Origin: Vicinamibacterales bacterium
GTDB taxonomy: Bacteria; Acidobacteriota; Vicinamibacteria; Vicinamibacterales; UBA2999
Assembly (NCBI GenBank): GCA_030680175.1
Contig: JAUXWO010000111.1
Span: 65,145-129,144 of the forward strand
Direction of reading: 5' to 3'
Length of the DNA: 64,000 bases
The translations under genes and the position numbers were made by a program. Shown in pieces: positions 18,705 through 28,101 of the stretch; positions within the stretch are counted from its first letter, which is position 1, and each line of letters starts with the position of its first letter. Below the pieces are notes generated by a model that was not told the origin of the DNA, ran no database searches, and saw only the letters and a list, made by a program, of their open reading frames with translations.

Positions 18705-18711
18705 CATTACT

Positions 18712-18760
18712 GAAAGCCGAAAGCCGAAGGCTGATAGCCGATAGCCGATAGCCGATAGCG
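18712..18760. repeat. Heptanucleotide tandem array A: GAAAGCC x2, GAAGGCT, GATAGCC x3, GATAGCG
   Basis: Read directly from the sequence. Coordinates are anchored by the stop codon at 18702-18704 and the ATG at 18771. TAG triplets at 18735, 18742 and 18749 fall in all three frames. Confidence 0.95.
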
Positions 18761-18770
18761 AAGAAACGAT

Positions 18771-19733
18771 ATGGACCTCAACGGGAAGAAAGTGATGTTG
18801 ATCGGAGGAGCCGGGCTCGTGGGCTCCCACGTCGTGGACAAGCTGCTCGCGCAGCCGGTGGCCGAGATTGTCGTCTTCGACAACTTCGTGCGCGGCACAC
18901 GCGAGAACCTGGCGGCGGCCGCCCGCGACCCGCGCGTGCGGATCGTCGAAGGCTCGATGACCGACCGCGACGGGCTGCGTCGCGCGATGGAGGGCGTCGA
19001 CGGGGTCTTTCTGCTGGCCTCGCTGTGGCTCGGTGAGTGCGTGAACGAGCCGCGCAGCGCGTGGGAAGTGAACGTCATGGGCTCGTGGAACGTGGTCGAG
19101 GCCTGCCGCGAGCTCGGCATCCAGCGCATCGTCTACTCGTCGTCGGCATCCGTCTACGGCAATGCCGTCGTCACGCCGATGACCGAGGAGCACCCGTTCA
19201 ACAACCGCACGACGTACGGCGCCACCAAGATCGCGATCGAGCAGATGCTGCGCGCGATGTACGAGCAGCACAAGCTGCCCTACGTCGGGTTCCGCTACAT
19301 GAACATCTACGGCGTGCGGATGGACTACGAGGGCACCTACGTCAGCGTGATCATGAAGGTGCTCGACAAGCTGTTCGCCGGGGAGCGCCCCGTGATCTTC
19401 GGCGACGGCTCGCAGGTGTACGACTTCATCGACGTCGAGGACGTGGCGGACGCGAACGTGCTGGCCATGCAGGCCGACTGCGTGGATGAGCAGTTCAACA
19501 TCGGCATGGGCGTCGGCACCTCCATCAACGACCTCGTCGGCATGCTGATCGAGCTGACGGGCTCCTCGCTGACCCCCGAGTACCGGGCCGAGGCCCAGAG
19601 CTTCGTGACCCACCGCATCGGAAGCACCGAGAAGGCCGAGCGGCTCATCGGCTTCAAGGCCACGACGCCCCTGCGTGAAGGGCTGCGCAAGGTCGTGGCA
19701 TGGCGGATGGCCCAGCGGGGCATCCACGCATGA
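18771..19733 (+). CDS. NAD-dependent epimerase/dehydratase (extended SDR)
   Basis: GGAGLVGSHVVDKLL (GxxGxxG) and YGATKIAIEQM (YxxxK). Confidence 0.85.
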   Translation: MDLNGKKVMLIGGAGLVGSHVVDKLLAQPVAEIVVFDNFVRGTRENLAAAARDPRVRIVEGSMTDRDGLRRAMEGVDGVFLLASLWLGECVNEPRSAWEVNVMGSWNVVEACRELGIQRIVYSSSASVYGNAVVTPMTEEHPFNNRTTYGATKIAIEQMLRAMYEQHKLPYVGFRYMNIYGVRMDYEGTYVSVIMKVLDKLFAGERPVIFGDGSQVYDFIDVEDVADANVLAMQADCVDEQFNIGMGVGTSINDLVGMLIELTGSSLTPEYRAEAQSFVTHRIGSTEKAERLIGFKATTPLREGLRKVVAWRMAQRGIHA

Positions 19734-20590
19734 TCTGGATCGTCCTGCCTGCCTACAACGAAGCGCAGGCGCTGCCGAAGCTGCTGCCCAGGCTCGACGC
19801 CGTCCTGCGCGAGCGCGGGCATGACTACCGGCTGGTCGTCGTCGACGATGGGAGCTCGGACGCGACCCCGGAGATCCTGGAGGGCTTCCGCGCCACGCTG
19901 CCCCTCGACATCGTCACCCATCCCATCAACCGGGGACTCGGCGAGACGGAGCGCGACGGCTTCGAGTACGTGGCGACACACTGCGCGCCGGACGATGTGA
20001 TCGTGCGGGTGGAGGGCGACGACACACACGACCCGGCGTACATCTTCGTCCTGCTGGAGAAGCTCGCGAGCGGCTTCGACGTGGTCAACACGTCGCGCTT
20101 TCAGCCGGGCGGCGCGCAGCGTGGCGTCAGCACGTACCGCGCCTTCATCAGCCGGTGCGCGAACCTGTTCATGAAGGTGATGTTCCCGATCCCCGGGCTC
20201 TGGGACTTCTCGTGCGGCTTCCGCGCCTACCGCGCCCGCGTGATCATCGATGCCGTCCGGGTGTTCGGCGACGACTTCGTCCAGTTGCGCGGCATGGGCT
20301 TCACGTCGACGCTCGAGATGGTCGTGAAGTTGAGCCTGCTCGGGTGCCGGTTCGCGGAGGTGCCCTTCGTCCTTCGCTACGACATGAAGGAGAGCGGCAG
20401 CAAGATGGTCGGGAGCATCACGACCCTCGGCTACCTGCTGATGGCGCTGCTCTATCACTGGCCGTTCGGCGGGTGGCGCAGCCGCTATCGCGGCCTCGCG
20501 GCGATGTACCGCCAGGACCCCGAGGCCGCGGTCGCCAAGTATCAGAAATCACAGTTGCCGAGACAGACGGCCAGCGGCATCCGTCTCTAA
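19730..20590 (+). CDS. Glycosyltransferase family 2, DPM1/Ppm1-like polyprenyl-phosphate glycosyltransferase, paralog 2
   Basis: ORF 19700..20590 trimmed to MIWIVLPAYNEAQAL at 19730 (ATGA overlap). Motifs VVVDDGSSDATPE and VEGDDTHDP, plus a single C-terminal hydrophobic segment. Confidence 0.8.
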   Translation: MIWIVLPAYNEAQALPKLLPRLDAVLRERGHDYRLVVVDDGSSDATPEILEGFRATLPLDIVTHPINRGLGETERDGFEYVATHCAPDDVIVRVEGDDTHDPAYIFVLLEKLASGFDVVNTSRFQPGGAQRGVSTYRAFISRCANLFMKVMFPIPGLWDFSCGFRAYRARVIIDAVRVFGDDFVQLRGMGFTSTLEMVVKLSLLGCRFAEVPFVLRYDMKESGSKMVGSITTLGYLLMALLYHWPFGGWRSRYRGLAAMYRQDPEAAVAKYQKSQLPRQTASGIRL

Positions 20591-20592
20591 GC

Positions 20593-20633
20593 CACGACCC
20601 ACGACCCACGACCCACTACCACTACCCACTACC
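20593..20633. repeat. Heptanucleotide tandem array B: CACGACC x3, CACTAC, CACTACC x2
   Basis: Read directly from the sequence between TAA 20588-20590 and ATG 20638. One unit is 6 nt long. Confidence 0.9.
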
Positions 20634-20637
20634 CAGC

Positions 20638-22539
20638 ATGTGCGGCATTTGCGGCATCCTCGAGCGTGACCCGGCCCGGCCGGTTGATGAGGCGCGCCTG
20701 CGCGGCATGACCGAGGCGCTGCACCATCGTGGTCCCGACGACCAGGATGTGCACGTGGATGGGGGGCTCGGGCTTGGCCATCGGCGGCTGAGCATCATCG
20801 ACCTCTCCGACGCCGGGCGTCAGCCGATGTCCACGCCCGATGGCCGTCTGTGGATCGTCCTGAACGGCGAGATCTACAACTACCGCGAACTCCGCGTGGA
20901 ACTCGAGGCCGCGGGCTGCCGGTTCCGGTCGCAGACCGACACCGAGGTGCTGCTGCACCTGTTCGATCGCGAGGGACCGGAGGGGCTCCGCAAGCTGATC
21001 GGCATGTTCGCGTTCGCGATCTGGGATGCGCGGGCACGCCGCCTGTTCGCCGCGCGGGATCACTTCGGCGTCAAGCCGTTCTACTACGCCGCGACGGGTG
21101 ATCGATTCGTATTTGCCTCGGAGATCAAGGCCCTGGTCGGCCCCGGTGGCGTGCCCGCCGAGCTGAATCAGGCGGGCCTGGCCGACTACGTCACGTTCCA
21201 GTTCACGCTCGACGACAAGACGCTCTTCAAGGGCGTGCGCAAGCTGATGCCCGGCCACTACCTGGTGGTCGAGCCCGGCGGCGACCCGGTGGTGCGGAAG
21301 TACTGGGACGTCAGCTTCGAGGTGGACACCCATCACACCGAGGCGTACTTCCAGCAGCGGCTCCGGGAGCTGCTCGACGATTCGATCCGGCTGCAGCTGC
21401 GCGCGGACGTGCCGATCGGCGCGCACCTGAGCGGCGGGCTCGACTCGACGACCGTGACGTGTCTGGCCGCCGGGACCGGGGCGCGTCCGTTCCATACGTT
21501 CAGCGGCGGGTTCGCCGACGGCCCGGCGTTCGACGAGACGCGCTACGCGCGGATCGCCGCCGCCGAGGCCGGCACGGTGCATCACGAGGTGTTCCCGACG
21601 GCGGCCGACTTCGTGGAGCAGATGCCGCGCCTGGCCTACGCGATGGATGAACCGGCGGCCGGTCCGGGACTGTTCCCGCAGTACGCCGTCTCGAAGCTCG
21701 CGGCCCAGCACGTGAAGGTGGTGCTCGGCGGGCAGGGCGGCGACGAGATCTTCGGCGGCTACACGCGGTACCTGGTCGCGTACCTCGAGGCCTGCATCAA
21801 GGGCGGGATCGAAGGCTCCCAGGAAGACCACCGCTACATCGTCACCTTCGAGTCGATCCTGCCGAACCTGGCGCAGTTGCGCGGCTATGAACCGATGCTG
21901 CGGCAGTTCATGGCCGAGGGCCTGTTCGACAGCCAGGAGCACCGCTACTTCCGCCTCGTGGACCGCAGCGCCGACATGCTCGGCGCGCTCGATGGCGCGG
22001 CCTGGGAGCAGATGACGCAGGGGTACCGGCCGTTCGAGGCGTTCCAGGCGGTGTTCGACGCGCCCGAGTGCCATTCGCTCATCAACAAGATGACGCGCTT
22101 CGACCTGAAGACGCTGCTGCCGGCGCTGCTGCAGGTCGAGGACCGCACCAGCATGTCGGTGTCGCTCGAATCCCGCGTGCCGCTGCTCGACCATCGCATC
22201 GTGGAGCTCGTGGCGTCGATGCCGCCGATGGTGAAGTTCAAGGGCGGCCGGTCGAAGCACGTCTTCCGCGAGGTGGTCGCGGGGATTGTGCCGGACGAGA
22301 TCTACAAGCGCACCGACAAGATGGGCTTCCCCGTGCCCCTCAACCGCTGGTACCGCGAGGAGCCGGTGCGTGGCTTCGTGCGCGACGTGCTGCTCGGACG
22401 CGCGGCGCGCGAGCGCGGCCTCGTGCGTCCGGACCGGGTCGAGGCGATGCTCGACAGCGAGCGCGACTACGGGCGCGGCCTGTGGGGCCTCCTGAACGTC
22501 GAATTGTGGGCGCAGACCTTCCTTGATGCACACCGCTGA
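20638..22539 (+). CDS. Asparagine synthase (glutamine-hydrolysing)-like amidotransferase
   Basis: ORF 20155..22539 trimmed to MCGICGIL (Ntn-type Cys2). Motifs HRGPDD, RLSIIDLS, LNGEIYNY and the PP-loop SGGLDSTTV. Confidence 0.9.
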   Translation: MCGICGILERDPARPVDEARLRGMTEALHHRGPDDQDVHVDGGLGLGHRRLSIIDLSDAGRQPMSTPDGRLWIVLNGEIYNYRELRVELEAAGCRFRSQTDTEVLLHLFDREGPEGLRKLIGMFAFAIWDARARRLFAARDHFGVKPFYYAATGDRFVFASEIKALVGPGGVPAELNQAGLADYVTFQFTLDDKTLFKGVRKLMPGHYLVVEPGGDPVVRKYWDVSFEVDTHHTEAYFQQRLRELLDDSIRLQLRADVPIGAHLSGGLDSTTVTCLAAGTGARPFHTFSGGFADGPAFDETRYARIAAAEAGTVHHEVFPTAADFVEQMPRLAYAMDEPAAGPGLFPQYAVSKLAAQHVKVVLGGQGGDEIFGGYTRYLVAYLEACIKGGIEGSQEDHRYIVTFESILPNLAQLRGYEPMLRQFMAEGLFDSQEHRYFRLVDRSADMLGALDGAAWEQMTQGYRPFEAFQAVFDAPECHSLINKMTRFDLKTLLPALLQVEDRTSMSVSLESRVPLLDHRIVELVASMPPMVKFKGGRSKHVFREVVAGIVPDEIYKRTDKMGFPVPLNRWYREEPVRGFVRDVLLGRAARERGLVRPDRVEAMLDSERDYGRGLWGLLNVELWAQTFLDAHR

Positions 22540-24208
22540 CGCGCTCGGCGCGCAGGTCGAGGCCGCGGCCGCGCGGGCCCTTGGCGAGCAGGATGCGAAT
22601 CCGCATTCGGCCACCGCGGGCTGCTTCGACCGCCGGTACTGGGCGTGGAAGCTCGTTGACTTCCCGGAAGCCACGTTCCAGCGGCTCGTGCTCCCGCTGG
22701 CCACGCTGTACCGGGACCCCGCCAGCCGCTATCACGGGCAGCCGGAAGTGCTGGCCGCCGTGCGCGCGGGCCTCGCGTACGTCACGCGCATTCAGCACGG
22801 CAACGGATCCTTCGATCAGGCGTTTCCGTTCGAGCAGAGCTACGGCGCCACGGCGTTCCTGCTGTCGCCCATCCTCGAGGCCGCGCGCCTCGTGGACGAG
22901 CACCTGACGCCGGCGGAGCGTGCCGCCATCGAGGGGACGGGACGACGGGCCGCCGAGTTCCTGTGCGGACACGAGGAGCGCCACGGCGTCATCGCGAACC
23001 ACCTGGCGGGGGCCGCGTGGTCCCTTGTCGTGGCGGCCGACCGGTTCCGCGAGCCGCGCTACGAGGAGGCGGCGTCTCGACTGGTGGCCTTCCTGCTCGA
23101 GCGCCAGTCCCCGGAGGGGTGGTGGCCGGAGTACGACGGCGCCGACCCCGGCTACCAGACGCTGTGCGTTGACTACCTGAGCGCCATCGCCGAGCGGCGG
23201 CCGTCGGAGGCGCTGGCGCGCGCGCTCGATCGGGCCGTGGAGTTCCTGCAGTGGTTCGTCCATCCGGACGGGACCTTCGGCGGCGTCTACGGCAGCCGGC
23301 GGACGTCGCTTGTCTACCTCGCCGGGCTGGCGCGCCTCGCGCCGCGTTCGGCACCGGCGGCCGCGATGTGCCGCGCGCTGGCCGCGGCCATGGCCCGCGG
23401 CGACCTCGCGGGGCCTGCCAGCGTGGACGCCGGCAACCTGGCCCCGATGCTCACGAGCACGGCGATGGCCCTGCCGCTGCTGGCGGCCGCTGGCGCGTCG
23501 GATGCGAGCCTGCCGTGCGAACGCACCGAAGTCGTCGCGGATTTCACGTCGGCAGGCCTCCACATCCGAGGGACCGCGCACTACTACGCGGTCTGCGGCG
23601 TGGCCAATGGCGGCACGCTCACCGTGTTCGCCGGCGAACCCCGCCGGCTCGTGCTCGACGATGGCGGCTACGTGGCAGAGATGGAGGACGGCGCGCGCGC
23701 CTCGACCCAGGCCACGCGCCGTGAACAGCCGGCGACAGTCGAGCAGGAGCGCATCGAGCTGACCGTGCCGTTCGTGCGCATGCCGTCGGCGCTCCCGACG
23801 CCGGGGCGGTTCGTCGCGTTGCGCCTGCTGAACCTGACGCTCATGCGCAGCATCGCGGCCGGCAACTGGGTGAAGCGGCGGCTCGTCGGGCTGTTGATGG
23901 CGGGTGGCGACGAGGTGGCCCTGACGCTGACCCGGCGCATCACGTTCGGCGCGGAGGCGGTCGAGGTCACGGACCGCATCGAGAGTCCCGGGAACCTGGC
24001 ATTGCGCGCGCTGACAGGCGGGCAGCCGTTCTCGAGCATTCACATGGCCTCCGCAGGGTACTTTCACGGTGCGCGCCTCGGCACGGCGCGCCCGGCCACG
24101 GTCGTGGACCTCGAGCGGCTGTCGCGCGAGGGCGTGGTCGAGCTGACCACCCGTGTCGATGTGGTGCCGGGCACCGAAAACCGATCGCCGACAGCCGATA
24201 GCCGGTAG
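22526..24208 (+). CDS. Hypothetical protein; predicted alpha/alpha-toroid N-half and beta-rich C-half (lyase-like architecture inferred)
   Basis: Long ORF that overlaps the upstream stop by 14 nt. Repeated motifs HGNGSFDQAFPFEQSYGATAF, SPEGWWPEYDGADPGYQTLC and HPDGTFGGVYGSR suggest toroid repeats. No named family is recognised. The last ~10 codons lie inside array C. Confidence 0.5.
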   Translation: MHTADALGAQVEAAAARALGEQDANPHSATAGCFDRRYWAWKLVDFPEATFQRLVLPLATLYRDPASRYHGQPEVLAAVRAGLAYVTRIQHGNGSFDQAFPFEQSYGATAFLLSPILEAARLVDEHLTPAERAAIEGTGRRAAEFLCGHEERHGVIANHLAGAAWSLVVAADRFREPRYEEAASRLVAFLLERQSPEGWWPEYDGADPGYQTLCVDYLSAIAERRPSEALARALDRAVEFLQWFVHPDGTFGGVYGSRRTSLVYLAGLARLAPRSAPAAAMCRALAAAMARGDLAGPASVDAGNLAPMLTSTAMALPLLAAAGASDASLPCERTEVVADFTSAGLHIRGTAHYYAVCGVANGGTLTVFAGEPRRLVLDDGGYVAEMEDGARASTQATRREQPATVEQERIELTVPFVRMPSALPTPGRFVALRLLNLTLMRSIAAGNWVKRRLVGLLMAGGDEVALTLTRRITFGAEAVEVTDRIESPGNLALRALTGGQPFSSIHMASAGYFHGARLGTARPATVVDLERLSREGVVELTTRVDVVPGTENRSPTADSR

Positions 24209-24245
24209 CCGAAAGCCGAAAGCCGAAAGCCGAAAGCCGAAAATG
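24176..24245. repeat. Heptanucleotide tandem array C: GAAAACC GATCGCC GACAGCC GATAGCC GGTAGCC GAAAGCC x4 GAAAATG
   Basis: Read directly from the sequence. It contains the upstream stop (TAG 24206-24208) and ends with the downstream ATG (24243-24245). Confidence 0.95.
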
Positions 24246-25187
24246 CCCGCCCTGCCTGGCGCCATCTCGAGTGACATCGACACGCTGCACTCCCTCTACA
24301 AGGGGCACGGGCTGCGGCGTGACGGGTACACCTACGCGGAGATGGCCATTGGCCTCGAGAACTTCTCGCGGTTCCTCGAGCCGTACGGCGTCAAGGCCAC
24401 GCTGTTCATGGTGGGGCACGATTTCCTGCAGCCGCAGAATCACGCGCCGATCCGCGCGGTCGCGGACGAGGGCCACGAGATCGCGAACCACTCGATGACG
24501 CACGCGCAGGGCTTCCGGTTGCTGCCGCCCGCGGAGATGGAGCGGGAAGTGGCCGGCATGGAAGAGGCATGCGAGGCGCTGCTGGGCCGGCGCCCGACGG
24601 GCTTTCGGTCGCCGGGCTGGAACATCGGCGACCAGGCGATCGAGATCCTCATGCGCCGCGGGTATGCCTACGACTCGTCGGTGCACCCCACGTCGCTGAT
24701 GCCGCTCTTTAAGCTGCTGCACTGGCGGAACACCACGCAGCGGACGGGCGGGGACCGCACGGCGATGGGGCAGCTCGACTACATGTGCGCGCCGATCTCG
24801 CCGTACCGGTCGTCGCGCGCGCACCTGCGCCAACGCGGCGCCGACGGCATCGTGGAACTGCCCGTTACCGTCGTGCCGGTGATCCGGCTGCCGTTCTGGG
24901 CCACCTTTCTGCTGGCGACGGGACTCGGGCCCTTCACCGCCAGCCTGGCGCTGCTGCGATCGTTCGGCGTGCCCGTGCAGTTCCAATTCCACCTGTCCGA
25001 CTTCGTCGACTTCAACCACCCGGAGTTCGCCGACCAGGTGCCGCGTCCGGGAGACGGCGTCTACGTCCCGCAGGCCCTGTGGACGCCGCTCGAGGCCAAG
25101 CGCGAGATCTTCACGCGGGCGATGGACCGGCTCGCCGAGCACTACACCTTCACGACGCTCGCGCAGTGGGCGGAGGGCGTGGCGTGA
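24243..25187 (+). CDS. Polysaccharide deacetylase (CE4 / NodB-homology domain)
   Basis: ORF 24153..25187 trimmed to MPALPGAISSDIDT at 24243. Motifs ATLFMVGHDF, HEIANHSMTH and GFRSPGW. Confidence 0.8.
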   Translation: MPALPGAISSDIDTLHSLYKGHGLRRDGYTYAEMAIGLENFSRFLEPYGVKATLFMVGHDFLQPQNHAPIRAVADEGHEIANHSMTHAQGFRLLPPAEMEREVAGMEEACEALLGRRPTGFRSPGWNIGDQAIEILMRRGYAYDSSVHPTSLMPLFKLLHWRNTTQRTGGDRTAMGQLDYMCAPISPYRSSRAHLRQRGADGIVELPVTVVPVIRLPFWATFLLATGLGPFTASLALLRSFGVPVQFQFHLSDFVDFNHPEFADQVPRPGDGVYVPQALWTPLEAKREIFTRAMDRLAEHYTFTTLAQWAEGVA

Positions 25188-26395
25188 TCCCGCGCCTTCG
25201 CCCCGCGTTCGGCCTCGGCGAGCTGACCGCCGCGATCCGGCCGGGATCGCCGGCGGACGTCGAGGCGTTCGAGCGCGACTTCGCCGCGCGGTTCGAGGCC
25301 GCCGAGGGGGTGGCGTTCCCGTACGGCCGCGCCGCGCTGGCCGCCTTCCTGCAGGCCGTGGGCCTGAAGGACGCCGAGGTGATCGCGCCGTCCTACACGT
25401 GCGTGGTCGTGCAGCATGCCACGGTGCTCAGCGGCAACGTGCCGCGCTTCGTGGACAACACGCTGACCGACTACAACATGGACCTCGACCAGGTGGCCGC
25501 GGCGATCTCGGAGCGCACCGGCGCGATCGTGGCCACGCACCTGTTCGGCTTTCCGCTGGACCTCGATCGGCTGCACGCGATCGTGCGCGACGCCGAGCAG
25601 CGCTTCGGGCGAAAGATCTGGGTGATTCAGGATTGCGCCCACTCGTTCGGCGCACGGTGGCAGGGACGGCTGGTGTGCCGCGAAGGCGACACGGCGCTCT
25701 TCGGGCTGAACATCAGCAAGGTGCTGTCGTCGATTTTCGGAGGCATGCTGACGTTCAACGACGCGGCGCTGGCGGCGACGGTGCGCGCCTGGCGGGACGC
25801 CCACCTCACGCCAGCTGGCGGGCTGAAGCCGGCCCTCCGGCTCGCGTACCTCGCCGCCACCTATCCGGCGTTTCACAGCCTCCCCTACGGGTTCGTGCAC
25901 TGGCTGCAGTACAAGACGTCCGTGCTCGACCGGCTGACGAAGGCGTACCATCTCGATGAGGCCATCCGGTTCCCGCCGGACGCCGGGGAGCGGATGCTGC
26001 CGATCGAGGCGCGGGTGGGGCGCGTGCAGCTGGCGAAGTACGACGCCCTCGTCGCCGCGCGCCGCGCGAACGCGGCGCACTACACCGAGGCGCTTCAGGG
26101 GATTCCCGGCTGGGTGCTGCCGCCGCTCGTGGAGGGGGCGACGTGGTCGCACTACCCCGTGCGCGTCCCCGACCGGGACGCGGCGGTGCGCCACTTCGCC
26201 GGGCACGGGGTGCATGTCGGCGAGGTCGTGGAGTACAGCGTCGCGCACCTGCCGTCCTACGCCCAATGGGCGGCCGGGCAGGAGCTGCCCAACGCGCTTC
26301 TCTGCAGCCGCCACATGATCAACCTGCCCGTGCACCCGCAGCTGACGGAAGCGGAGCGCGCGCGGGTGGTCGCTGCTGCGCGGGGCAGGGCGTAG
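25184..26395 (+). CDS. DegT/DnrJ/EryC1/StrS-family aminotransferase, copy 1
   Basis: Starts at GTG 25184 (GTGA overlap). Motifs FPYGRAALAAFLQAVGL, VIQDCAHSFGA and FGLNISKVLSS (candidate PLP lysine). Confidence 0.8.
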   Translation: MIPRLRPAFGLGELTAAIRPGSPADVEAFERDFAARFEAAEGVAFPYGRAALAAFLQAVGLKDAEVIAPSYTCVVVQHATVLSGNVPRFVDNTLTDYNMDLDQVAAAISERTGAIVATHLFGFPLDLDRLHAIVRDAEQRFGRKIWVIQDCAHSFGARWQGRLVCREGDTALFGLNISKVLSSIFGGMLTFNDAALAATVRAWRDAHLTPAGGLKPALRLAYLAATYPAFHSLPYGFVHWLQYKTSVLDRLTKAYHLDEAIRFPPDAGERMLPIEARVGRVQLAKYDALVAARRANAAHYTEALQGIPGWVLPPLVEGATWSHYPVRVPDRDAAVRHFAGHGVHVGEVVEYSVAHLPSYAQWAAGQELPNALLCSRHMINLPVHPQLTEAERARVVAAARGRA

Positions 26396-26455
26396 TTCTT
26401 AGTCTTTAGTTCTTAGTCTTTAGTTCTGAGTTCTGAGTTCTGAGTTCTGAGTTCC
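26393..26455. repeat. Heptanucleotide tandem array D: TAGTTCT TAGTCTT TAGTTCT TAGTCTT TAGTTCT GAGTTCT x3 GAGTTCC
   Basis: Read directly from the sequence. The first triplet is the TAG stop of the upstream aminotransferase. TAG triplets at 26393, 26400 and 26407 fall in all three frames. Confidence 0.95.
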
Positions 26456-26512
26456 CGGTTGGTTCTTGGGTCTGGAAACGCGTAGCCAAAGGAACGCGGT
26501 TGGGGCTGAGCC

Positions 26513-26875
26513 GTGCAGGATCACCGGCAGCTTGACGTCTGGCACCGCGCGATGGCGTACGCGACGGACGTCTACAAGTTCACTTCTGGCTTGCCGGTCG
26601 AGGAGAGATACAATCTCATGATCCAGATCCGCAAGGCGGTCGTCTCTGTGCCTCTGAACATCGCTGAGGGCGCCGGTGCGACGACGGGCGCGGAGTTCAG
26701 CCGGTTTCTGGGTTATGCGTACCGGTCCGCCAAAGAGGTTGTGACCTGTCTGGAGTTGTGCCAGCGCCTGTATCCGGAAGTCGGCGCGTCCACCCGTCCC
26801 GCCCTGATTGACGAGGGTGAACAGATCGCACGGATGACGCGCGCATTGATGCAACGCCTGAACACTCCGCACTAA
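26513..26875 (+). CDS. Four-helix-bundle protein (23S rRNA intervening-sequence protein / Avd family, PF05635-TIGR02436 type)
   Basis: 120 aa. The sequence LDVWHRAMAYATDVYKFTSGLPVEERYNLMIQIRKAVVSVPLNIAEGAG...FSRFLGYAYRSAKEV matches the family signature. It has visibly more A/T-ending codons than its neighbours. Confidence 0.9.
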   Translation: MQDHRQLDVWHRAMAYATDVYKFTSGLPVEERYNLMIQIRKAVVSVPLNIAEGAGATTGAEFSRFLGYAYRSAKEVVTCLELCQRLYPEVGASTRPALIDEGEQIARMTRALMQRLNTPH

Positions 26876-26921
26876 TAACTAATAACCAATAACTAATAAC
26901 TAACAACTAATAACTAACAAC
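26873..26921. repeat. Heptanucleotide tandem array E: TAATAAC x2, CAATAAC, TAATAAC, TAACAAC, TAATAAC, TAACAAC
   Basis: Read directly from the sequence. The first triplet is the TAA stop of the four-helix-bundle gene. The array ends 4 nt before ATG 26926. TAA triplets fall in all three frames. Confidence 0.95.
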
Positions 26922-26925
26922 CTCC

Positions 26926-28101
26926 ATGCACATCCCCATCACCAAGCCCGTCTTCGGCGCTGAAGAGCGCGAGGCCGTTCTGCGCCCGCTCGAGACCGGC
27001 TGGGTCGTGCAGGGCCCGTTCGTGGCGGAGTTCGAGGGCAAGTTCCGCGCGTTCAGCGGGGCGGATCACGCCGTGGCGGCCAGCTCCTGCACGACCGCGA
27101 TGCACATCGCCGTGGCGGCGCTCGGCCTGAAGCCGGGCGACGAGGTCATCGTGCCGGCCTTCACGTGGGTCTCGACGCCGAACGTGGTCGAGTACATGCA
27201 CGCGCGGCCCGTGTTCTGCGATGTGGACCTCGACACCTTCAACCTGAACCTCGAGCACGCCGCCTCGCTCGTGACGTCGCGCACGGTGGGGATCCTGCCG
27301 GTGCACCTCTTCGGCCTGTGCGCCGACATGGACGGGGTGCTGGATCTGGCGCGTCGTCACGGCCTCTGGGTCGTGGAGGACGCGGCGTGCGGGTTCAACG
27401 CCTGGTACAAGGGCCGCCACGCCGGGGTCTTCGGCGACGCGGGCTGCTTCAGCTTCCATCCCCGGAAGGCCATCACGACGGGCGAGGGGGGAATGATCAC
27501 GACGGCGAACGCGGAGCTGGCCGGGCGGTCGCGGTCGCTGCGGGACCATGGCGCCTCACGCTCGGACCTCGCGCGTCACACGGCCTCGGCAGCCTTCCTG
27601 CTGGCCGACTACGATCAGCTCGGGTTCAACTTCCGGATGACGGACCTGCAGGCGGCGGTCGGCTGCGCGCAGATGGACCGCGCGCCGTGGATCGGCGTGG
27701 AGCGGACGCGTGTGGCCCGGGAGTACGATCGCGCGCTGGCGGATCTGGCATGGCTGGCGCTGCCGCGGGTGCCGGACGGGTACGCGCATGGCTACCAGGC
27801 CTACGTGTGCCTCTTCCAGCCGGAGCCGCCGTCGTTGGATAACGTCGATCGACTCCACGCGTGGCGGAACCGGCTGATGACGCGGCTCGAGGAGCGCGGC
27901 ATCGCGACGCGGCAGGGGACGCATGCGCCGGTGCTGCAGGGGTTCTACAGGACGAAGTACGGATTCGCGCCGGCGGACTTCCCGCACGCGACGATCGCCG
28001 ACCGGCTGTCGCTGGCGCTGCCGCTCTATCCCGGCATGACCGGCGAGGAGCAGGCGTACGTCGTGACCGAGCTGCGGCAGGCGTGTGATGCGACGCGGTA
28101 G
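26926..28101 (+). CDS. DegT/DnrJ/EryC1/StrS-family aminotransferase, copy 2
   Basis: Motifs ITKPVFGAEEREAV, AASSCTTAMHIAVAALG, VVEDAACGF and FSFHPRKAITTGEGG. Confidence 0.9.
   Translation: MHIPITKPVFGAEEREAVLRPLETGWVVQGPFVAEFEGKFRAFSGADHAVAASSCTTAMHIAVAALGLKPGDEVIVPAFTWVSTPNVVEYMHARPVFCDVDLDTFNLNLEHAASLVTSRTVGILPVHLFGLCADMDGVLDLARRHGLWVVEDAACGFNAWYKGRHAGVFGDAGCFSFHPRKAITTGEGGMITTANAELAGRSRSLRDHGASRSDLARHTASAAFLLADYDQLGFNFRMTDLQAAVGCAQMDRAPWIGVERTRVAREYDRALADLAWLALPRVPDGYAHGYQAYVCLFQPEPPSLDNVDRLHAWRNRLMTRLEERGIATRQGTHAPVLQGFYRTKYGFAPADFPHATIADRLSLALPLYPGMTGEEQAYVVTELRQACDATR

Follow-up and report, generated by a model that had tools for sequence, protein, structure and literature searches.

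A heptanucleotide tandem array at a stop-to-start junction of a Vicinamibacterales polysaccharide operon is probably a lineage-specific intergenic repeat and not a gene-fusion switch

A 64,000-nt stretch of a Vicinamibacterales genome (assembly GCA_030680175.1, contig JAUXWO010000111.1, positions 65,145 to 129,144 of the forward strand; referred to as the window) was analyzed with respect to a tandem repeat, designated array C, at the junction of two genes of a polysaccharide operon. Array C consists of ten head-to-tail 7-nt units (24174-24243, plus strand) with the pattern CCGNNNN and belongs to the CCGAWAG family, which can also be read as AGCCGAW. As the initial annotation of this DNA had noticed, it holds both the stop of the upstream gene and the start of the next: the in-frame TAG at 24206-24208, which closes the open reading frame (ORF) 22523/22526..24208, lies within unit 5, and unit 10 ends with the first base of the ATG at 24243-24245. 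The same annotation proposed that slippage in the array toggles between separate, fused and extended proteins. The analysis points to a different role. With a probability of roughly 0.65, array C is a tandem array of heptanucleotides that is intergenic, specific to its lineage and of the kind known as short tandemly repeated repetitive (STRR) sequences and TAACTGA repeats, and it is not a gene-fusion switch. The array and the genes on both sides comprise the following features.

22526..24208, plus strand: upstream gene, here called toroid, encoding a 560-aa hypothetical protein with weak Pec_lyase/Ulvan_lyase_N similarity, listed by NCBI as a protein of a Vicinamibacterales metagenome-assembled genome (MAG)
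24174..24208, plus strand: units 1-5 of array C, no two alike, with the in-frame TAG at 24206 in unit 5
24207..24242, plus strand: perfect period-7 tract of array C, 36 nt or about five units of AGCCGAA, the non-coding spacer or leader between TAG and ATG
24243..25187, plus strand: CE4 polysaccharide deacetylase gene (PF01522), 314 aa, with a start that is backed by the N-termini of listed homologues

The units of array C follow one another in the order CCGAAAA CCGATCG CCGACAG CCGATAG CCGGTAG, four times CCGAAAG, and CCGAAAA, and were reported by Tandem Repeats Finder with a score of 89, 9.9 copies and a period of 7. They are oriented forward relative to operon transcription. Units 1-5 contain periodic runs of only 12-13 nt; they code for most of a 16-aa tail of the toroid protein (DVVPGTENRSPTADSR) and provide its stop. 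A second TAG-bearing unit, unit 4 (CCGATAG), carries an out-of-frame TAG at 24199 and closes another frame, giving stops in two of the three frames. The tract at 24207-24242 is the longest perfect period-7 run in the array, lies wholly 3' of the stop and is the part that varies in unit number among relatives.

The gene boundaries were checked against homologues, which were tabulated as the best 120 or 150 matches (390 listed out of about 5,400 significant matches). The NCBI annotation of the source MAG (Acidobacteriota) contains the same two genes with 560 and 314 aa, and a TTG at 22523 is an alternative to the annotated toroid start at 22526. Listed toroid homologues that reach the C-terminus stop at about ...ELTTRV, except for the two closest relatives; only these two possess tails comparable to the 16 aa by which the toroid protein of the window runs past the conserved ...TTRV end. 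The listed CE4 homologues begin 1-9 residues ahead of the conserved GAISSDIDTL, and their N-termini thus confirm ATG 24243 as the start. None of them harbors a repeat-encoded N-terminal extension. An exact-sequence look-up of the CE4 protein returned no record, and a metagenome scan with the conserved 5' DNA of the CE4 gene, aimed at further junctions, gave no matches.

Several properties place array C among the STRR and TAACTGA repeats. Arrays of at least four units with at least 85% self-identity were searched for in the window, with first-order Markov simulations of its 70% GC sequence as the null model. Five period-7 arrays were found, whereas the simulations gave 0.01 per 64 kb; periods of 4-6 and 8-12 were not represented. 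Tandem 7-nt arrays therefore occur far above chance, and period 7 is over-represented specifically. All five arrays are located between 18.7 and 26.9 kb, in one 8-kb stretch of the polysaccharide operon, each at a stop-to-start junction, and all but array D finish 0-5 nt ahead of the next ATG. Array C shares this position at a gene boundary; it runs forward, ends near the start and overlaps the stop. Its unit recurs within the genome (arrays A and C) and in related genomes, namely another Vicinamibacterales MAG and contig L127. Finally, unit number and unit sequence vary at one and the same junction among relatives. This was seen in a comparison of eight complete orthologous junctions; a ninth contig, L128, starts inside the array.

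L003, L004, L005 (toroid 68-69% identity): no array; TGA, 5 nt, ATG
L001 (toroid 81%): five degenerate CCGNNAG units before the stop, the last being an in-frame CCGATAG; then 5 nt, ATG
L002 (toroid 81%): four degenerate units before the stop, the last being an in-frame CCGATAG; then 5 nt, ATG
L125 (CE4 91%): the same five positions before the stop as in the window, two units after it, seven in total
L127 (CE4 84%): four units before the stop, six after it, ten in total
L126 (CE4 86%): no units before the stop, the gene ending at a TGA ahead of the array; four units after it
Window (100%): five units before the stop, about five after it, ten in total

The call for a comparison of unit numbers among orthologous loci was thus rewarded: the complete junctions contain 0, 4, 5, 7 or 10 units. 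The distribution of these units indicates that array C arose in a small Vicinamibacterales clade, as the junction of the more distant relatives consists of TGA, 5 nt and ATG. The alignment further indicates that the array overwrote the ancestral stop, and that the upstream protein thereby gained a 16-aa tail ending at an array-borne TAG. This tail is exactly 16 aa long after TTR[V/A] in the window, L125, L127, L001 and L002 (81-100% identity). The unit number of the coding part has therefore not changed during divergence to 81% identity. Judged from these alignments, the coding part kept its length and decayed through point substitution, and it was probably held fixed by selection or by a low slippage rate. 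The non-coding part grows and shrinks, with 0-6 units among the relatives and 0, 0, 2, 5 and 6 units in the five lineages with the 16-aa tail; the perfect tract of about five units in the window is young. More distant relatives have a syntenic operon in which neighboring genes overlap or are separated by a few nucleotides.

Expansion and contraction of the post-stop tract would proceed by replication slippage. Changes in its unit number would leave both reading frames intact and at most tune the spacing between the two genes. The distance from stop to start increased from 5 nt in the ancestral arrangement to 34 nt with array C, and this may loosen termination-reinitiation coupling between the toroid and CE4 cistrons. 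The expectation that unit number affects the start-codon context was borne out in this sense, as unit numbers differ among related genomes and with them the leader and the spacing before the CE4 start. The RNA of array C might act as an A-rich, unstructured leader of the CE4 gene that lacks a Shine-Dalgarno sequence. In the predicted fold of 24150-24300 the array is unpaired in the centroid structure, and a stem flanking it is not significant (z = -1.57; 13 of 200 shuffles fold equally well). This stem is built around a perfect 10-bp inverted repeat, GTGTCGATGT (24153-24162) and ACATCGACAC (24275-24284), which extends to a predicted stem of about 22 bp; the downstream half is conserved coding sequence (SDIDTL). 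Scans for promoters and terminators detected no promoter-like or terminator-like site at array C. They gave one terminator-like site, located where array D begins, a result below what chance alone would give. No Rfam family was detected at any of the arrays. A specific role of array C as a Shine-Dalgarno substitute was rejected, as a Shine-Dalgarno sequence is absent from most genes of the operon anyway.

The unit of array C is not restricted to this operon. A genome scan for three consecutive CCGAWAG units yielded at least 118 loci, and the matches listed include Chloroflexota, Gemmatimonadota, Acidobacteriota (among them other Vicinamibacterales), Bacteroidota, Planctomycetota, Poribacteria and other phyla. 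Many of these loci carry several period-7 arrays of other units. In another Vicinamibacterales MAG the unit is present on several contigs, with arrays between amidohydrolase, gamma-glutamyltranspeptidase, PfkB kinase and alanine dehydrogenase genes, which rules out a specificity of the arrays for polysaccharide loci. As the unit is found again at further junctions and in numerous phyla, array C might also be the binding site of a putative factor. Based on crude gene calls for the foreign loci (long ORFs and GC content at third codon positions), 47 of 113 arrays contain or directly follow the end of a long ORF on the CCGAWAG strand, compared with 27 of 113 on the opposite strand. Two points from this survey weigh against the reading of array C as a lineage-specific intergenic repeat. 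AGCCGAW arrays elsewhere adjoin a start codon in only 17 of 113 cases, so that the tight stop/start geometry is not universal, and the recurrence of one unit across phyla exceeds what local slippage alone would produce and may point to a mobile origin or a shared factor.

Of the other arrays of the operon, two enclose a gene of the PF05635 family.

18710..18765, plus strand: array A, of the same unit family as array C, CTGAAAG CCGAAAG ... and three times CCGATAG
20592..20637, plus strand: array B, CCACGAC/CCACTAC, between the TAA of a glycosyltransferase gene (20588-20590) and the ATG of an asparagine synthase gene (20638)
26393..26455, plus strand: array D, TAGTTCT/TAGTCTT/GAGTTCT, starting with the TAG of the first DegT gene; 5' arm of the four-helix-bundle gene
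26513..26875, plus strand: four-helix-bundle gene (PF05635, 23S_rRNA_IVP, "S23p"), within the cassette formed by array D, this gene and array E (26393-26921)
26871..26921, plus strand: array E, ACTAATA (readable as TAACTAA), the reverse complement of the unit of array D; 3' arm

Array A begins 5 nt past the TGA of a UDP-GlcNAc 2-epimerase-like gene and finishes 5 nt before the ATG at 18771; its unit number is not the same in L126 as in the window. Arrays A and C lie 5.4 kb apart in direct orientation, with an identical 17-nt word, GAAAGCCGAAAGCCGAA, in both. If they recombined with each other, the epimerase, glycosyltransferase, asparagine synthase and toroid genes would be lost. Array E includes the TAA of the four-helix-bundle gene and finishes 4 nt before the ATG at 26926. 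The overlapping-gene junctions of the operon (AsnB/toroid and CE4/DegT) contain no array. In L127, a unit of the AGCCGAW family is also found at a third junction.

The unit of array D (TTAGTTC) is the reverse complement of that of array E (TAACTAA), and in the predicted fold the two arrays pair around the entire four-helix-bundle ORF. The same pattern of inverted arms, built from other units, occurs in L102 (7544-7961) and twice in L015 (1127-1615 and 5829-6332). In loci selected by their arrays four-helix-bundle genes are modestly enriched (five genes in 785 kb), and a strong signal was obtained only when loci were chosen by protein. For this purpose 80 metagenome loci (L129-L208) were picked solely by similarity to the four-helix-bundle protein, 69 of which include both flanks. 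Among these 69 PF05635 loci an array is located upstream in 40, downstream in 38 and on both sides in 30, against a background of 0.047 arrays per flank. In all 30 two-array loci the arms are reverse-complementary (at least 6 of 7 bases), and the units differ from locus to locus. A second pass, in which genes and arms were re-located, gave 34 two-arm cassettes; in 27 of them an upstream ORF read in the same direction has its stop at the 5' arm, and in 19 an ORF of the same direction begins no more than 35 nt from the 3' arm. No paper linking PF05635 genes with heptamer arrays was found in the literature.

The four-helix-bundle gene is missing from the DegT-DegT junction in L004, L126 and L127. 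This junction contains TCAGTTN three times (the reverse complement of TAACTGA) followed by eight units of AGCCGAR in L127 (3800-3895), only degenerate heptamers in L126 (8455-8515), and a gap of 25 nt in L004 (13794-13818). A motif directly after the stop, GGTACGAT, is common to all three contigs and was lost in the window.

It is possible, although unlikely, that array C is an orphan arm, that is, that arrays C and A are the surviving 3' arms of PF05635 cassettes, or landing pads for them, and that the stop/start geometry was inherited from the cassette. An intact cassette is present in the same operon, cassettes of L015, L181 and L193 have forward AGCCGAN as their 3' arm, the typical cassette resembles array C in its contact with a stop (27 of 34) and a nearby start (19 of 34), and an inverted partner lies within 700 nt of 41 of the 116 AGCCGAW arrays from elsewhere. 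However, the remaining 75 of 116 lack such a partner, which suggests that arrays of this kind may arise independently. Array C itself has no inverted partner: the window contains no CTWTCGG array, and none of the five arrays is complementary to C. While D and E are partners of one another within about 0.7 kb, array C has neither a partner at this distance nor an ORF enclosed between arms, and no PF05635 ORF or four-helix-bundle remnant was detected at the toroid-CE4 junction in the window, in the six relatives or in any other orthologous contig examined. Twelve loci (L007, L009, L014, L020, L029, L050, L051, L060, L064, L113, L114 and L121) contain "empty" hairpins, in which an AGCCGAW array is followed after a gap of 5-130 nt by a reverse-complementary array, with no ORF between. 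These hairpins may be processing sites or cassettes that lack their gene. According to a broader and likewise doubtful proposal, unpartnered arrays such as A and C did not arise through independent slippage but go back to a widespread, so far undescribed element that resembles a PF05635-bearing intervening sequence (IVS), has its four-helix-bundle gene between mutually reverse-complementary heptamer arrays and inserts precisely at operon stop-to-start junctions; they would be its arms, its footprints or its landing pads. If true, this proposal would link two long-standing puzzles, the origin and function of STRR and TAACTGA arrays and the role of S23p/four-helix-bundle genes, and would predict that operon mRNAs are processed at the arms in the manner of RNase III.

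An expression rheostat is a still more doubtful explanation than an orphan arm. By analogy to hmw1A and hmw2A of Haemophilus influenzae, the number of perfect AGCCGAA units between TAG and ATG would vary within populations and set the translation of the CE4 gene. The perfect tract does adjoin the ATG, and close relatives differ by 0-6 post-stop units. However, about five perfect units are few for a high slippage rate, given that the hmw1A constructs contained 13-24 (PMC8262952). In H. influenzae the repeats are located between two promoters, but no promoter-like site was detected at array C. Furthermore, the host is a free-living soil or sediment bacterium, and its arrays occur at many unrelated junctions.

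The contingency locus proposed in the initial annotation, in which slipped-strand mispairing ahead of the TAG toggles between separate proteins, a fusion of about 885 aa and an extended product, is very improbable. Its starting points are sound. The length of the unit is not a multiple of three, the unit number at the junction differs among relatives, and the CE4 frame is indeed open backwards through array C, as far as 24144. Each single-unit deletion and duplication was simulated in silico, and deletion of any of units 1-5 produced an in-frame toroid-CE4 fusion. The frame arithmetic of the claim that loss of one unit fuses the two genes thus holds, but the size given for the fusion (about 875 aa) does not: it measures 885 aa from TTG 22523 and 884 aa from ATG 22526, with the junction peptides ...TADSRKPKAESRKPKMPALPGAISS and ...SPTADSRKPKAESRKPKMPALPGAISSDIDTLHSLYK. 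The counterpart of this claim, that gain of one unit opens a third frame up to about 24498, is contradicted by the TAG at 24199, which lies in exactly that frame. In the simulation, duplication of any single unit led to a product of 561 aa, a gain that is practically without effect, and deletion or duplication of units 6-10 changed no product. A 653-aa extended product requires the joint deletion of two adjacent units including unit 4 or unit 5.

The position of the perfect repeats also argues against a switch. In contingency loci based on simple sequence repeats a perfect or near-perfect tract inside the coding sequence is expected, whereas the 36-nt tract of array C (24207-24242) follows the stop; among the coding units 1-5 no two are the same and no run exceeds 12-13 nt. 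Frame-shifted or fused alleles were not seen among close relatives; the coding tail did not differ in length among five lineages. In L125, the nearest relative, the second TAG shuts the CE4 frame and loss of one unit gives no fusion; in L127 TAGs shut all three frames; and in L001 and L002 gain of a unit, not loss, would reach the CE4 frame. The potential for fusion is therefore not conserved, and the open frame of the window is an accident of this genome. In L127 (1575-1626) the CE4 ATG is in frame with the toroid gene, and a single TAG is the sole in-frame stop between them; readthrough or point mutation of this TAG, rather than slippage, would join the two proteins.

Natural fusions were not found either. 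The best 120 listed toroid homologues measure 397-569 aa and none contains PF01522, the best 120 listed CE4 homologues measure 282-331 aa, and the best 150 CE4 representatives out of 1.84 billion cluster representatives measure 110-435 aa, with matches that start no more than 74 residues from the N-terminus. Thus, no toroid-CE4 fusion occurs among these 120 + 120 + 150 listed proteins (0 of 390). An open frame ahead of the CE4 gene is expected by chance, as 74.5% of 33-codon stretches on this strand of the window are free of stops (P = 0.745). At 70% GC, open frames upstream of start codons are therefore the rule; the frame of the gene that follows array B is open for 271 codons upstream of that junction. 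In a genome of such composition a frameshift close to the end of a gene tends to continue into the next gene. With the perfect tract behind the stop, a constant tail, no fusions and a frame that is open by default, the proposed toggle finds no support. Two other routes to a joined product were considered and rejected. Readthrough of TAG 24206 would add only 21 aa, as the next in-frame stop is at 24272. A programmed ribosomal frameshift is not indicated: inspection of the 0-frame (ACC GAA AAC CGA TCG CCG ACA GCC GAT AGC CGG TAG) revealed no X XXY YYZ motif, and the regional fold, which might supply a stimulating structure, is not significant (z = -1.57).

That array C or its unit count stems from misassembly of a low-complexity region has a negligible probability: although short-read assemblers break at the tract and a contig of the independent Logan assembly of the same strain terminates within the 36-nt perfect run, because the tract exceeds the assembler k-mer, this contig matches 22210-24236 at 100% identity, including all of the first nine units, and homologous arrays were found at this junction in six further contigs that come from different samples; the exact count of perfect units is known from one assembly.

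The apparent fusion switch is what a 7-nt repeat between tightly packed genes looks like in a GC-rich genome with rare off-frame stops. Heptamer arrays at operon junctions, in Vicinamibacterales as in many other phyla, rewrite the ends of genes, here by a 16-aa tail, a new stop and an altered intercistronic spacing. Annotation pipelines and searches for phase variation should expect such look-alikes. The covarying inverted heptamer arms of PF05635 genes in the protein-selected sample provide a concrete handle on the function of both the repeats and the proteins. Array C is a member of an already described heptamer class, whereas no published description of the inverted-arm pattern of PF05635 genes was found.

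Among known systems, the simple sequence repeats of hmw1A and hmw2A resemble array C in having tandem 7-nt units upstream of a gene, and there the copy number alters expression (PMC8262952). These genes belong to a host-adapted pathogen, and the constructs with 13-24 perfect repeats as well as the placement between two promoters differ from array C, which has about five perfect units, lies inside an operon and has no promoter-like site. In Xanthomonas, most GGGAATC arrays are located between the same genes in two species and vary extensively in length and sequence (PMC4692102). Unlike that of array C, their unit is G-rich and was examined for quadruplexes, and an overlap with stop or start codons was not reported as a feature.

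Arrays D and E, but not C, can be compared with the intervening sequence of the Coxiella burnetii 23S rRNA, which bears S23p (PF05635) and whose complementary termini form a 28-bp stem that is cut by RNase III (PMC4990558). In both cases the two termini around a PF05635 ORF are complementary and form a long stem. In contrast to the Coxiella IVS, the element of arrays D and E is located between protein-coding genes of an operon, its arms are tandem heptamers with a unit that differs from cassette to cassette, and cleavage is only predicted.

Closer to array C are the cyanobacterial STRRs and the heptamers of Nostoc, such as GACYAAT, repeated eight times at recO (bioRxiv 10.1101/2022.06.06.494920), and GGGGAYT (PMC4692102). 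They are intergenic heptamers near promoters or starts, some of them inside operons (pecE-pecF). Array C differs from them in phylum and in unit sequence, and the G-runs for which GGGGAYT was studied as a quadruplex former are absent from AGCCGAA.

The TAACTGA repeats of Beggiatoaceae, cyanobacteria and Bacteroidetes share the largest number of features with array C. Most of them are oriented forward, the largest category finishes 1 nt before a start codon (MacGregor 2015, PMC4679880), 13 sets overlap the upstream stop, and a Shine-Dalgarno sequence is usually absent (PMC4679880). Like array C, they are forward 7-nt tandem repeats just upstream of starts, often of genes without a Shine-Dalgarno sequence, with some sets overlapping the upstream stop, stop triplets within the unit, many loci per genome and a patchy distribution across phyla. 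Array C is distinguished by its AGCCGAW unit in a 70% GC genome of the Acidobacteria, by its length (10 units compared with 2-6 in a Beggiatoaceae genome) and by the fact that only two of its ten units bear a stop, which leaves one frame open. The unit of array E in the same operon (TAACTAA) is one mismatch away from TAACTGA.

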